Positions 1,518 through 54,325 of a stretch of DNA of 64,000 nucleotides are shown here, one piece after another. The notes under the pieces were generated by a model. It had not been told where the DNA came from. It made no database searches and worked only from the letters and a program-made list of their open reading frames with translations. Position 1 is the stretch's first letter. Each line of letters begins with the position of its first letter. The position numbers and the translations under genes are program-made. This stretch comes from Octopus vulgaris (lineage: Eukaryota), in NCBI GenBank assembly GCA_951406725.2, contig OX597821.1:40052001-40116000 (forward strand), in the 5' to 3' direction.

Positions 1518-2024
1518 CAGTTCTGTATTTAAGAGATGAGAAACTATGTACATTATTTACATTATTTACATTTGACAGATATTTGTCCTTATCTTGTTTT
1601 GTTGTTAACACAACGTTTCAGCTGATACACCCTCCAGCCTTCATCAAGTGTCTTGGGGAAATTTCGAACCTGGGTTCTCATTCCTAAGGTATTTTTCCAT
1701 GTTATTATTATTATTATTATTATTATTATTATTATTATTATTATTCAGGTCACTCGGAATCTTGGCGTAGTGGTTAAGAGCGCAGGCTACTAACCCAAAA
1801 ATTCTGAGTTCGATTCTAGGCAGTGACCTGAATAATAATAATAATAATAATAATAATAACGATAATAATAATAATAATAATAACAACAACAACAACAACA
1901 TTGAAAAATACCTTAGGAATGAGAACCCAGGTTGCAGGTTGGAGGGTATATCAACCGAATCATTGTGTTACCAACAAACAAGATGAGGACAAATATCTGT
2001 CAAATGTAAATAATGTAAATAATT
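1518..2024. mobile_element. tRNA-headed, HHR-bearing SINE inserted as an inverted (foldback) pair
   Basis: 13-bp direct repeat taagtaaatgctt at 1505-1517 and 2025-2037 (TSD). Arms are reverse complements. tRNA-like head with A box (tagtggttaag) and B box (gttcgattc) at about 1763-1816, plus internal (AAT)n. Confidence 0.85.
1607..1652 (-). ncRNA. Minimal type I hammerhead motif (C3>U)
   Basis: Minus strand reads gacac-UUGAUGA-aggcug...cagcu-GAAAC-GUU-guguu; stems I and II pair. Confidence 0.65.
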
Positions 2025-2434
2025 TAAGTAAATGCTTGTTGGTCAGTTTTTTTTATAACATGATATAACCCAGAGATTTTCTTTTAAAGTTCATTGAGCA
2101 GTAATGAAAAACTTATGATGTGTCTCTACTGACACAAGTCATTGGTTTGTTATCACCACTAGAGTGGCTCCATTAGTGGTTTATAGCTTTATAAATGATG
2201 ACAAGACATTTTTGATTCTTTCACAGTTAATTTTTTTATGTATATATATATATGTGTGTGTGTGTGTGCATGTGCTTGTGTATGTGTGTGTATGTGTTTG
2301 TGTGTGTATACCTTTGATAATTCAGTTCCTGAACCAATCTACATTCCACATGAAAATTTCAGAATGAATTAATAATAGATTAAGCATTTTCAAAAAATAT
2401 AATTCTAGGACAAATACATTGACATACATGCATA

Positions 2435-2845
2435 CGTACATACGTACTTATGTATGTATGTATGTATGTATGTATGTATGTATGTATGTATGTATGTATG
2501 TATGTATGTATGTCTTTGTTAATGATTGGATCTACAAGACTGCTGGGTTGCTTTATGCTGTTGTCCTTCCTACAGTGATGATGGTGAGGAGGAGAAGGAG
2601 GAGAGGAAGAATAGGGGGAGGAGGAGGAAGATGACAATGATGATGACAACGATGACGATGATGATGATGCTGGTAATGCTGATGATAATAACGACAATGA
2701 TGATGATGATGATTATGTTGGTAATGGCAATGATGATAAAAATGACAACAACGATGATGACGATTATGATGATGATGATGACAATGACAAACACAATGAT
2801 GAGGAAGGTGGTGGTGAGGATGATGGCAATGGTGAGAATGATGAT
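2435..2845. repeat. (TATG)n followed by degenerate (ATG)n/(GAG)n microsatellites
   Basis: Seen directly; accounts for the poly-M/poly-I ORFs. Confidence 0.95.
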
Positions 2846-3270
2846 TTATTGAAGTTTTTAGAGAAATTTCTCTTCACCAATATTGCTAAGAGATAAAAAA
2901 ACAAAAAAACAAAAAAAATACACTGTTATGTATTAATTCTGTAAAATAGATTTATAGTGAAGAATGCAATGAAGAATATTGTTTTCGACATCAGAAGTAT
3001 CTCAATTTGATATATTTCTTCATTAAATGGAAGTAATTTTACTAGTTGAGTAAATGACTTACCGATTTGTGTATCATCAATACCATATTTCGATAAATAT
3101 CTCATTTTGATATCTTCCATTTCACAGCAAGCCACTTCACACTACCACATAGATCTTTTCTTATAAATATGTATGTGTGTATTCATATATACACACACAC
3201 ACACACACACACACACACACACACACATGTATATAAAGATAGATATAGCTGGTCTGTATGGTTTTACCAA

Positions 3271-3501
3271 TTTTATTCAACATATTCCCTTCTCAGATTC
3301 CTACATTTATTTTAGCAGTCCTTCAGTTTTTCTAACCTCTTTACAAGAACTCAGAATGATGGGCCTCTAATCAGGCCTTTCACGACACCCTTAAAGCCAG
3401 GAATTTTTCAGCACCACCTCATATATATTAAAGGGCTTAAAAAAACTGAAGGACCACTGCAATAAGTGTGTGAATCTGAGAGGGGAATATGTTAAATAGA
3501 A
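3271..3501. mobile_element. MITE-like foldback
   Basis: About 73-bp imperfect inverted arms at 3271-3343 and 3429-3501 (aacatattccc(t/c)tctcagattc...gtccttcagttttt). Confidence 0.65.
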
Positions 3502-3618
3502 TCATAATTAACTGATCCTCCTGTATTTTCTTTTACCCTAAGCCCTAAACTTTTTATCACCCATCATATGGGTGTGTATATATATATATATATATATATA
3601 TATATACACACACACACA

Positions 3619-51100: not shown

Positions 51101-52969
51101 CATACATATATACATATATATACATACATACATACATATATACATAACCCCACAATTAACCTAGCTACATTTTTACATTATCAATAAAAACTTAGAGAGG
51201 AGGTCATAAGTCTTAAAAGAATTTACTATTTGTGTAACTAATAAAGGAAAACTAGAGAAAGGTGGAAGAATCCAAAATTTTGTGATGTCTTTTATGCCTC
51301 TTTTTGTCTGCAAAAACTTTCTCTGATATCCAAAATTAACACAAAAAAAAAAGATAATTTCAAGTTAATTCATGGAGTTCTTTTCTAAAATTAGTTTTTA
51401 ATTTTAAGCAGTTTACCTGTCTGTGAGGAAAAGGTGCCATTTGATTTGGAACTGTAACATGAAATCATTTAGAATCCTGCTGAATCTTAATCCATCTCCT
51501 TTTGTCAAGAGGTTTGTGCTAAACACGAGCTGTTAAAAGCTCATTAGGACTTAGGAGACATCTACAGTTTTACGATGATATTAGATTGTATCCCATTGAG
51601 GAATCATAAATTCGTAGCAATTGTCAATGTCATATTTATGGCAGCAGTACGCATCTGACATCCTTGTTTGCATAGCAACACACCACCACGACACTGACAT
51701 CCTGCAGATTGTCGAGTCATTTAAAGGAATAAAAATATCATTTAAAAATGAATGGTTTAATTCTAAAATATTATCGGGTAATAAACAAAAAGTCATATCC
51801 AGAAATATCGCAATGATTTCCCTTGCCACGATGGCTCTGATTATCAGAGATGACTGTCAAGGCAACAACATCTAGTATTTTAACTGACAATTATATTTTA
51901 CCAAAGTGTTTACAGCTGCTTTTGTTATTAAACATTCAAACCAATCATGTATGATGATAAAAAAAGATAATAATAATAATCATAATGATGATGATGATGA
52001 TGATGATGATGATGATGATGATGATGTTGATGATGATTTTCATTACCTTTGTGTTAATTTTTTTCCTATTATTTTCTATTATCAATTCTTGCAACATTGA
52101 GGCAAAAACGAGTCATTTATTGGATTCTTGCTGATTAAATATTTCATGCAATGGAAAATAATTGTTATTTTTTGACAATGCACAGTGCCATTAGTTTTAA
52201 AAAAGGACATAGTCAACATATTTTTTCACAGTATATTACTGGTATTCATTAAATATTGGACATATTAGAGTTATCCATTCAACACTCTGTACTATTGATG
52301 CTGTTGTTGTTGTTGTGTAGTAACCCATGGTTCCATGGTTCCATTCCACCACTAGGCCCTGTTTCAATAAGATTGTGATCATGCAAACTGATTTTAAAGA
52401 ACTACATCATCTAATATGTCCTTCCATTTTTATGACAGTAGGATGTGATGTGAGAGAGATTCAACTGTTACATCTAGGAATACGAGCCACTGCATACAGA
52501 AGATTCCTTGCCAACTTGTCCATCTCTCAATTTTGTCATCAGGAATTAAGCAAACAGGAGAAATATATTATATTATATTATCAATGGATTTGAATTGAAA
52601 AAGGTTTGGAACGGAAATCTCCAGAAAATATAATTTACTAATTTAGATAAAATCTATGGTCGAACACATTGGATCAAAATACTAAATACCAGCATTAAAA
52701 CTAAGAACAGCAAAGCTGCAAACCTTATTAACCACTCTGACATATCAGTGTCATGTGTGCATTGTTGTGTGAAAGCATCCAATCATAATAATTGTTTTCA
52801 ATCCATGATCCATTGAGGTCACTTAGACAATGTCTGAAAGCATCATCTTCCTGTAATATATTTTGGTCAAAGATGAAGAAAACTCAGTACTGCTGGATAA
52901 TGAAATATTGTCAATTTTAGGATGTTTGTACTGTCTGACTGAATTGCTATTAAATAAAGGTTCTGTACA

Positions 52970-53175
52970 AAGCAGTAAGCTTGCTGAGTCGTTAACATGC
53001 CAGGCTAAATGCTTATTTCATCCATCTTTAAGATCTGAATACAAATTCCATTCAAGTCAGCTTTGTCTGTCATCCTTACAGGAGCAATAAAATAAGTACC
53101 AGTTGAACATCAGGGTTGGTGTATGTGACTTACACCTCCCCTAAAATTGCTGGCCTTGTGTTAAATTTTTAAACC
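52970..53175 (+). mobile_element. Diverged SINE family A
   Basis: aaataagtaccagttg...aaattgctggccttgtg. Confidence 0.7.
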
Positions 53176-53398
53176 AATTAAAGGTTCTCTACCAGCCTAT
53201 GATATTTACTTAATTGGCAAATGATGTATATAATGAAACAATAGACCTGTGTTGGTTGTAGATTCATTATACATAAATTGTGGATCTTCCAGCTTGTAAT
53301 CCAATGATTTAACTGATCAACCAGCCGTGACTGTCTTATGATCGGAGTATTTAAGAGACTTTGAAATACTATAAACTTCAGTTTTTAATTTGCATGTT

Positions 53399-53650
53399 CA
53401 TCATCATCATCATCATCATCATCATTATCATCATCATCATCATCGTCATCATCATCTTCACCTCATTTAATGTCCATTTTCCATGCAGGCATGGGTTGGA
53501 AGGTTTAAGAAGGAGCTGGCAAGCTGGAGAGCTGCACCAGGCTCCAGTCATCTGTTTCTACTGCTGGATGCCCTTCCTAAGGCCAACCACTTTACAGAGT
53601 GTCATGGGAGTTTTGAATGTGGCACCAGTAATGGCTGCTTTTTACATGGT
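53399..53650 (-). mobile_element. RTE 3' end fragment
   Basis: (cat)n...ttccatgcaggcatgggttgg...ggatgcccttcctaa. Confidence 0.8.
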
Positions 53651-53901
53651 GCAATACATACACACCTCCATACATACATACATACATACATACATACATA
53701 CATACATACATACATACATACATACATACACACATGCATGCATACATACATACAAGGTTTGTTTAATGAAAACTCATTTCCACATTGCTCTTTATCTCTT
53801 CATGCTCGTTCTGCCACCAGGATATATATATATTAGCAGGTCTTTTTATTTATTACACACTCCAATACTAGTTACATATATATATATATATATATATATA
53901 T

Positions 53902-54325
53902 AGTAGCAGATACTGTTTACGAATTCAATAACCATACATATCTTACATCTATTTTCTTTCTTCCACCTCACTCTCTATTTGTATCACATCGAAACTAACT
54001 ATGACTTAATTTTTCCTCTCACACCATCTCCAATGAACGGATATTAATAATTAATATCCTAGAAACAGCTGTAAGCCCTTCTATCTATAAATGCTCTAAT
54101 ATCTATACAGCCTCAGTTTTTATCTCATTACGCAAAAAATTTGTATATACACATGCTGATATAGAACCAGTGTTGAACCCTTTATTTGCAATATTACCGA
54201 ATCTGGAACTTAACTATGGTCTGTCTATAGCACTTATTCTGCATTACCTGACACCATTGGGTCTCAATGAAACCATTATCTCTTACAGTAGCAGATACTT
54301 TATGCATTACCCAGTACAGTACCAA
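53902..54325 (+). mobile_element. (TA)n-flanked element, 385-bp period, with a decayed HHR (54028-54075)
   Basis: agtagcagatact at 53902 and 54287; cu-CCAAUGA-ac-ggauauua-auaau-uaauaucc-ua-GAAAC-agcu-GUA-ag. Confidence 0.55.

Follow-up and report, generated by a model that had tools for sequence, protein, structure and literature searches.

Hammerhead ribozyme folds in Penelope-like elements of Octopus vulgaris and a putative tRNA-derived promoter in a Poseidon-type pseudo-long terminal repeat

A 64,000-nucleotide stretch of the Octopus vulgaris genome (positions 40052001-40116000 of contig OX597821.1; hereafter the window) raises the question of what has multiplied the hammerhead ribozyme (HHR)-shaped motifs scattered through it. 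The window belongs to a 2.8-Gb genome of 227 contigs, has a G+C content of 35% and is rich in microsatellites. An earlier note on this DNA had listed 11 such motifs and attributed them to many dedicated non-autonomous retrozymes mobilised by Penelope-like elements (PLEs). Here we propose that the motifs are HHR folds residing in the pseudo-long terminal repeats (pLTRs) of PLEs and in short derivatives of PLEs, that these were likely copied by PLE reverse transcriptase (RT) and endonuclease from uncleaved RNA, and that a tRNA-derived segment in the pLTR of a Poseidon-type PLE (family A) is a likely RNA polymerase III (Pol III) promoter yielding copies that resemble short interspersed elements (SINEs). 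From the sequence comparisons given below, we regard this account as probable.

Hammerhead folds in ten repeat families

An HHR-shaped motif was found at or within a few bases of ten of the 11 coordinates. The remaining candidate, at 3814, was rejected, as the family majority sequence there has neither a CUGANGA core nor a palindromic helix III; the repeat that covers it (family J) has its HHR at 3925-3971 on the other strand (+), which is taken as the sense strand because of the polarity of the family's inversions. The window sites fall into ten dispersed genome-wide repeat families, A to J. The hosts are not all unrelated, as had been claimed, since B and G can be aligned along their length. 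First-look candidates, whose counts are lower bounds, numbered 903 for A, 1,939 for C, 1,026 for D, 1,434 for E, 2,772 for F, 2,783 for G, 170 for H, 3,410 for I and 136 for J, and 15,646 for the endonuclease of family B.

The folds are supported by the stem covariation that the earlier note had asked for. Over the ten family majorities, 39 of the 40 first four pairs of helix I are paired, as are 39 of 40 in helix II; with permuted partners the values are 16.5+/-3.8 (none of 20,000 permutations reaching 39) and 23.2+/-2.9 (one of 20,000), respectively. Position 4 of helix I is swapped between C-G and G-C in the related families B and G, and the G10.1-C11.1 pair is found in five of the ten families. 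Helix III is self-complementary in all ten, with eight different sequences of 4-10 nt, and is followed by UH, where H17 is U in A and G and U or A in B. An extra base after A9 occurs only in A, B, G and arguably I. By their predicted pairing, the motifs are minimal type I hammerhead folds, for which cleavage is a prediction.

The cores, counted over best-scoring and random copies together, are of several kinds. Canonical cores with GAAA were found in 44/55 copies of A, 13/15 of D, 25/29 of E, 17/21 of F and 13/20 of H, while U3-A8 cores with GAAA, in which C3-G8 is replaced by the compensatory pair U3-A8, were found in 28/30 copies of C and 11/23 of J. Intact family cores are therefore present in seven families and absent in B, G and I. 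The core of family B is fixed as CUGUUGA (A6U; 26/37 copies, with a canonical or U3-A8 core in 0/37), that of G as CCGACGA (U4C; 20/32, with a canonical or U3-A8 core in 5/32) and that of I as CCGAUGA (U4C; 16/25, with a canonical or U3-A8 core in 2/25), where an A.A apposition closes helix II. An alternative register for family B with a UUGAAGA core was rejected, because its helix II fails by inspection. In the portion of PMC3088659 covered (all sources below are likewise cited for the portions covered), U4C and A6C reduce hammerhead activity and U4C keeps some function in a viroid, while A6U lies outside its coverage.

Two further features of these regions were observed. The family C HHR (window 37040-37170, -) is nested in a larger hairpin whose closing stem is a 12-bp inverted repeat. 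The HHR cores of B and G (window 42010-42050 and 36770-36830) are preceded by a long pyrimidine tract and followed by AG; PLEs contain introns in the region around the HHR, and a splice acceptor overlapping the HHR in B and G is possible.

How strongly the motifs exceed chance within the window varies with the descriptor used. An initial structural scan gave no perfect-core match, because it disallowed the extra base after A9. When that base was allowed, one perfect-core match was found against 0.17 in 30 local dinucleotide shuffles, and a one-mismatch scan gave eight matches against 2.6 (maximum 7 in 30 shuffles). A second descriptor, chosen after inspection of the data, required a palindromic helix III and admitted U3-A8, U4C and A6U cores; it gave five matches in the window (3931, 32484, 34811, 37116 and 48750) against 0.15 in 40 shuffles (maximum 2), and 30 matches in 800 kb of genome (80 evenly spaced 10-kb stretches) against 2, 2, 2, 1 and 0 after shuffling. 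The modest window-level statistics arise because most window copies are damaged; those that fail the second descriptor are decayed or bear family-level core variants. Of the 179 matches in an Rfam scan of the window, the 150 listed included no hammerhead family; they were microsatellite-driven microRNA and small nucleolar RNA matches. CUGANGA/GAAA matches at 39311, 31490, 43280 and elsewhere were rejected because they failed the helix tests; the one at 39311 sits in sequence repeated from a long interspersed element (LINE) fragment at 39641-40252.

The high genome-wide numbers foreseen from the window were borne out. The 800-kb sample contains 63 non-overlapping matches of at least 60 nt to the HHR regions of the window families (17 of B, 15 of G, 13 of A, seven of C, four of D, three of E, two each of I and F, and none of H or J), which extrapolate to ~2x10^5 copies genome-wide when both arms of inverted pairs are counted; the HHR density of the window is ~2x the sample mean. 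At least four more HHR types that are absent from the window were seen in the random sample (L280, L309, L238/L311 and L268/L302/L270), one of which, bringing the U4C families to three, has a helix II domain of 100 nt and occurs as an inverted pair.

A Poseidon-type element with a tRNA-like segment

The tRNA-derived segment of family A had been missed by the earlier note. A Poseidon-like remnant in a random locus (L237) led to a family of 2,537 candidates. In all five other loci examined, the endonuclease stop is followed by ~35 nt and then by the whole of A (tRNA-like head, microsatellite, HHR and, in some, tail), and an RT core lies further upstream in L424 and L428. In L428 the stretch from endonuclease to tail is repeated as a 5'-inverted arm. 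Six unselected A copies also extend upstream into the coding element, and a 111-nt query that ends 7 nt into the head found 2,609 candidates, the best 40 of which are 95-100% identical over nearly the full length. The order of the element is thus RT, GIY-YIG endonuclease, stop, ~35 nt, tRNA-like segment, microsatellite, HHR and tail. Judged from this sequence context, family A is the pLTR of a coding Poseidon-type element. The 14 loci examined in a search for the GIY-YIG family are Neptune-like elements, none of which carries family A.

The reading of A as a stand-alone SINE was rejected, as the whole unit is joined to a coding PLE in 5/5 loci. Like SINEs, family A has at its 5' end a head derived from a tRNA and bearing A and B boxes; it departs from them in that it does not differ from its autonomous partner outside the 3' tail, the head being included in the coding PLE. 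The head is a 77-nt segment whose end is kept in 23 of 30 A loci and whose start is kept in 19 of 30. Over ~75 nt it aligns to a tRNA-Arg(TCT) gene of the same genome with a score of 53.5 (26.2+/-3.3, maximum 39, in 200 shuffles), and stretches resembling the A and B boxes are kept in the family majority sequence.

A key question is what sets the 5' ends of the A copies. Among the unselected head-bearing copies, a count that leaves out four loci without the head or with coding sequence only, 11 of 17 begin within -11 to +7 of tRNA position +1, and the other six begin at -41, -52, -71, -203, -363 and -506. Of 42 alignments in 30 A loci chosen by similarity to the HHR, none starts before -14. 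A Pol III leader would start at or just before tRNA +1. Because the 5' ends pile up at about this position, Pol III initiation from the A and B boxes is in our view the most likely cause, although the balance leans only slightly that way. In this scheme, Pol III would transcribe any genomic copy of the A pLTR into a ~300-nt RNA, which would be a ready template because the HHR and tail are still present.

Alternatively, the A copies may be ordinary 5'-truncated Poseidon copies, produced without Pol III when the tRNA fold or the +1 palindrome makes RT stall or switch template, or when RNase P trims the long RNA there. Truncation and inversion at the 5' end are the norm in PLEs (PMC8557442), the whole of A lies inside the coding element, and six of 17 unselected copies continue into it. 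The short natural palindrome at tRNA +1 could be enough to promote inversion or stalling, and this self-complementary stretch lies at the centre of many inversions. However, few primary ends fall within the structured segment, the pile-up instead covering +1 and the 14 nt ahead of it; an exact RNase P cut would not give ends at -11 to -14; and the box-like stretches are preserved in the majority sequence. We therefore consider truncation alone doubtful, though it is the most serious of the alternatives.

Coding parents, short units and the RNA template

Besides A, three families are the 3' ends of coding PLEs: judged by motifs, B is Neptune-type, and H and I are Hydra-type. The Penelope GIY-YIG fragment recognised by the earlier note is real. 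It spans 40793-41324, falls below the Pfam cut-off (GIY-YIG, E 0.0056) and is accompanied by a pLTR HHR at 42038-42075 whose family core is A6U. The HHR region lies downstream of the endonuclease in 27 of 30 family B loci, and the linker has the motif CX4CxxC. In one of eight long loci (L317), two pLTR HHR regions flank a 930-aa open frame with an RT match above the Pfam cut-off. Families H and I show graded 5' truncations that extend upstream into decayed coding sequence; the remnant of H (L388) retains DKT, CxCX5C, CxxC and CxH motifs, and that of I, which comprises the endonuclease end only (L390 and L406), retains CxxC and CxH, in line with the linker and motif diagnostics of PLE clades, including the Hydra motifs (PMC8557442). 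No full-length copy of A, H or I was found among the loci examined. The description of most hosts as non-coding elements of 200-500 bp is right for the window copies but not for the families, four of which are ends of coding elements.

Further coding PLEs were encountered in the sampled loci. An AT-rich Neptune-like family (L414 and L419) looks very young, as 16 of 148 GIY-YIG matches fall in open frames that are all exactly 781 aa long. The HHR in its pLTR combines a U3-A8 core with the 6-nt palindrome also present in family C. Another two families of coding Neptune-like elements (L252, L354 and L358-L387; L355) have U3-A8 HHRs with an ACCGGU palindrome. One of the two has 17,869 first-look candidates, and helix II is only ~2 bp in one of them. 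A 426-aa open frame with tandem C2H2 zinc fingers lies beside two PLE fragments (L356:4161-5438, +).

The insertion signatures are also those of PLEs: 5'-inverted copies, one-ended tails and (TA)n targets. An upstream inverted partner accompanies 33/47 family A copies in their own loci and 5/11 in other loci, as well as 18/35 copies of D, 8/23 of I, 6/23 of F, 7/29 of C, 5/22 of H and 2/28 of E, with no downstream inverted partner in the copies of these seven families checked. The partner in family J (8/22) lies on the side that fixes its sense as the window + strand. Three abundant SINE-like families, used as controls only, had inverted partners in 0/26, 12/108 (five downstream) and 11/161 (four downstream) copies. 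In 14 of 16 inverted family A pairs, one end has a ~33-nt tail and the other has none, a signature called unique to PLEs and ascribed to two RT start sites (PMC11167929 and PMC8557442), and optional tails also occur in D and F. In nine families, 65-96% of loci have a run of (TA)5 or more after the element, the background being 24%. Family A, with 5/30, does not share this association, so the claim of (TA)n neighbourhoods holds for all but one family; the absence of (TA)n bias in A fits its Poseidon-type parent, in which no zinc-finger linker precedes the GIY-YIG endonuclease.

Families C, E, G and J look non-coding, and no coding parent with an RT or GIY-YIG open reading frame (ORF) was found for C, D, E, F, G or J. 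Family G is a 200-nt element with fixed ends in 20/20 of its own loci, with no common upstream sequence past 91 nt in unselected copies. D and F run at least 490 and at least 260 nt further upstream in other copies, with no recognisable ORF there. C, E and J form bounded direct partial tandems in which no ORF was found, with units of 362-365 nt (period 365 in L066 and 362 in L268), 600 nt (period 600 in L092) and ~347 nt (partial), respectively. The proposal that J is the pLTR of the adjoining PLEs in L222 and L227 was rejected because those PLEs have their own 3' ends and HHRs.

These tandems bear on the proposal that the short families are dedicated non-LTR (long terminal repeat) retrozymes, which self-cleave from tandems, circularise and are reinserted from circular RNA by PLE enzymes. 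The unit sizes of C, E and J match those of retrozymes (PMC7229834; bioRxiv 10.64898/2026.07.22.740005), and both HHRs of the two tandem C units in L268 pass the structural scan. Against it, four families (A, B, H and I) belong to coding elements as their ends; apart from C, E and J, each family has only 0-2 direct tandems (in 21-47 copies); inverted pairs carry the second HHR on the opposite strand and so offer no dimer in cis; and only one of nine Xenopus retrozyme dimers was cleaved in vitro (bioRxiv 10.64898/2026.07.22.740005). As a general account, dedicated retrozymes are therefore unlikely. By layout they fit three or four of the ten families, and the retrozyme reading may hold for C, E and J.

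In the proposed mechanism of PLE copying, the PLE protein would nick AT-rich DNA, and reverse transcription would begin at either of two tail sites and copy toward the 5' end, such priming giving rise to 5' truncation, inversion and the one-ended tail. A palindromic helix III would allow cleavage only as a dimer or with the help of a protein, as reported for HHRs with a short helix III (PMC4209133 and PMC11167929). Since the second HHR of an inverted pair is antisense, such pairs give no cis dimer, and since genomic copies span the cut site, the usual template was probably uncleaved. In a lizard Poseidon element, HHR mutants insert unimpaired in vitro (PMC11167929). In B, G and I the fold would have been kept while the core drifted, which suggests slow or dispensable cleavage, though it may also be protein-assisted, and the amplification of these families with altered cores fits an uncleaved template. 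It is also conceivable, as speculation by analogy with the idea of ribozyme-assisted translation in viral HHRs (PMC13725137), that the ribozyme assists translation of uncapped RNA.

Several points weigh against this account of uncleaved templates and a Pol III promoter. The PLE clades were assigned from motifs, and the stem registers behind the pairing counts were placed by hand, with two of the ten families (B and G) related. No inverted partner was found nearby for B (0/34) or G (0/21) in their own loci. In inverted A pairs the arms are 91.4% identical, against 91.1% between loci, with nucleotide N7 concordant in 13 of 16 pairs; the arm-to-arm identity neither supports nor opposes inversion from a single template. 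For the promoter, no tRNA was called in the head by default ARAGORN (0/11 A loci), Rfam or phage blastn, the 757 noisy calls of relaxed ARAGORN being uninformative on the head, and the head was compared with eight tRNA types only; the tRNA-Arg isotype is tentative for these reasons. Runs of four T that would terminate Pol III are absent from 18 of 19 A copies. This absence is not diagnostic of Pol III, since the coding strand further upstream is likewise rich in A and poor in T4 (none in 1,274 nt against 1.25 expected); the T4 counts lack significance and lend no support to transcription of the whole element by Pol III. None of the Poseidon copies in the loci examined was full-length with a 5' pLTR.

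A bolder proposal, which we advance tentatively and with some reserve, is that a captured tRNA gene replaced the promoter of a Poseidon-type PLE, that the element breeds its own SINE to more than ten times its own number, that the promoter in the 5' pLTR drives the ORF, and that three families (one of them Neptune-type with intact ORFs) kept the fold despite changes at U4 or A6. The segment might instead be a passenger without promoter role, left by an independent tRNA-SINE that inserted once in the Poseidon 3' untranslated region (UTR) and spread with the chimera. The genome is rich in tRNA-headed SINEs, and the L424 head aligns to the head of the window SINE at 37409 (49.5) about as well as to tRNA-Arg (46.5); but the similarity ends with the tRNA part, with no SINE body after it. 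The segment also directly precedes an ATG-opened frame that runs from just past the microsatellite through the HHR to the end of the tail in three of the five A copies translated, which is where a 5' pLTR would need a promoter, and an origin by capture is compatible with later use as a promoter. A mere passenger is thus decidedly improbable. That the motifs are chance matches in AT-rich repeats, an idea to which the wrong site at 3814 and a one-mismatch scan barely above the shuffles lend something, is practically inconceivable and already refuted at the family level by the excess in the genome stretches, the compensatory stems, the core covariation and the constant place at PLE 3' ends.

Window features, known systems and implications

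The positions of the family copies and their HHRs are collected below.

Coordinates of hammerhead-bearing repeats and hammerhead motifs in the window
Feature	Position	Strand	Description
Family A copy, inverted arm	1560..1745	-	Microsatellite, body, HHR 1607-1652 with copy-specific C3U; 94% identity to majority
Family A, second arm of same insertion	1746..2015	+	tRNA-like segment ~1763-1831, (AAT)n, body with HHR core deleted; head-to-head with 1560-1745
Family J	3618..4116	+	Partial tandem of ~347-nt non-coding unit; HHR 3925-3971, U3-A8 core, 10-nt palindromic helix III
Family F	32291..32600	+	Inverted 3'-tail fragment, then 5'-truncated body; HHR 32479-32567, canonical core, 59-nt helix II domain
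Family A copy	34683..35050	-	~13 nt of PLE 3' UTR, tRNA-Arg-like segment 34975-35037, (AAC/AGC)n; HHR 34771-34816, canonical core; PLE tail ~34683-34715
Family G	36655..36851	-	~200-nt element with fixed ends between (TA)n runs; decayed HHR 36745-36780; related to B pLTR
Family C	36909..37345	-	Young ~365-nt non-coding unit and 5'-inverted fragment; HHR 37080-37122, U3-A8; 99% to majority
Family D	40545..40738	-	Young, 5'-truncated; HHR 40664-40729, canonical core; helix III broken in window copy
Family B	40793..42170	+	5'-truncated Neptune-type PLE: GIY-YIG end 40793-41324, pyrimidine-rich 3' UTR, pLTR HHR 42038-42075 (A6U family)
Family H	42285..42690	-	3' end of Hydra-type coding PLE; HHR 42416-42530, canonical core, 89-nt helix II domain
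Family E	48457..48794	-	Part of 600-nt non-coding unit; HHR 48666-48756, canonical core, 60-nt helix II domain
Family I	53916..54285	+	3' end of Hydra-type coding PLE; decayed HHR 54025-54077, U4C family
HHR motifs	32479-32567, 42038-42075, 54025-54077	+	
HHR motifs	1607-1652, 34771-34816, 36745-36780, 37080-37122, 40664-40729, 42416-42530, 48666-48756	-	

Some (TA)n tracts hold insertions of more than one PLE family, with G beside C (36530-37750) and D, B and H in a row (40470-42860), which is consistent with shared targeting of microsatellites. The control SINE-like families are represented at 37409-37700, 7180-7580, 10010-10237 and 4120-4525 in many copies, and at least two of the three have tRNA-like heads. 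Decayed LINE RT fragments, which we take to be RTE-like from their motifs, lie at 39641-40340 (-) and 11839-12249, with a second partial copy of such a fragment near 39270-39440.

The bulk of these findings is expected biology at high density and makes the octopus genome a dense new example of a known system. Hammerheads in PLEs, variants with U3-A8, pairs on opposite strands and retrozymes derived from PLEs have all been published (PMC4209133; PMC7229834; bioRxiv 10.64898/2026.07.22.740005; PMC8557442). The metazoan PLE pLTR HHRs of Cervera and De la Pena (2014; PMC4209133) likewise have a minimal or palindromic helix III, an extra base after A9 in some families and U3-A8 covariation, and occur as many consensus families per genome, mostly as single copies from truncated PLEs and also as dual copies on opposite strands 100-700 bp apart. 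Here, in contrast, the longest palindromes of helix III measure 8-10 nt and the domains of helix II 39-89 nt; U4C or A6U cores, not listed in the portion of that study covered, are fixed in three families; and the density is ~10x its 2,000-9,000 motifs per genome, albeit in a larger genome and by a different count. The Poseidon element PAc of Anolis (Frangieh et al., 2024; PMC11167929) resembles family A in its pLTR HHR, the start of the ORF inside the pLTR, an optional tail of 30-40 nt bounded by two RT start sites, targets that are AT-rich but not microsatellites, and uncleaved RNA as the main template, but the portion covered does not mention a tRNA-derived segment such as that of A.

Metazoan non-LTR retrozymes (PMC7229834; bioRxiv 10.64898/2026.07.22.740005) are non-coding 170-970-nt units with a type I HHR and kinship to PLE pLTRs, into which C, E and J fit by layout. 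Most window families differ from them in being dispersed, inverted or truncated, with four of them ends of coding elements; the portions of these sources covered include no cephalopod. A high-copy, tRNA-related short element of schistosomes with an HHR (PMC2770079) is like family A in both parts. Its source names no mobilising partner, whereas the whole A unit is the 3' end of a coding Poseidon-type PLE and bears PLE insertion signatures. Cassandra, Helenus and Ajax (PMC10886601) also hold tRNA- or 5S-like sequence within a terminal repeat; they are non-autonomous LTR elements, however, and the repeat here is the pLTR of a coding PLE. An octopus repeat annotation contains many SINE and PLE families, and ribozymes are not mentioned in the portion covered (PMC13282606).

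No tRNA-bearing pLTR or PLE-mobilised tRNA-headed element was found in the literature searched, most subscription journals and Repbase being outside its reach. Octopus SINEs named OK, OR1 and OR2, reportedly described by Ohshima and Okada in 1994, are said to be tRNA-derived. Family A may already be catalogued, among these SINEs or in Repbase, without its HHR or its link to PLEs. What appears to be new is the tRNA-bearing Poseidon pLTR with SINE-like offspring, together with the fixed non-canonical cores.

If the proposal of promoter capture is true, every inserted 3' end of the Poseidon-type element would double as a gene for Pol III, with a short transcript that retains both the HHR and the sites where RT starts. 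Ordinarily a SINE combines a tRNA head with a tail from another element, a LINE, but the entire SINE-like unit of family A lies inside the coding element. This would give a SINE a direct route to its birth, and the unit would be, within the literature searched, the first PLE-mobilised tRNA-headed element. The three families with fixed U4 or A6 changes would in turn be natural experiments on the need for cleavage by PLE hammerheads. With canonical, U3-A8, U4C and A6U cores and palindromic helices III of 4-10 nt in families that have all been amplified, a single genome offers a panel for testing whether cleavage matters.

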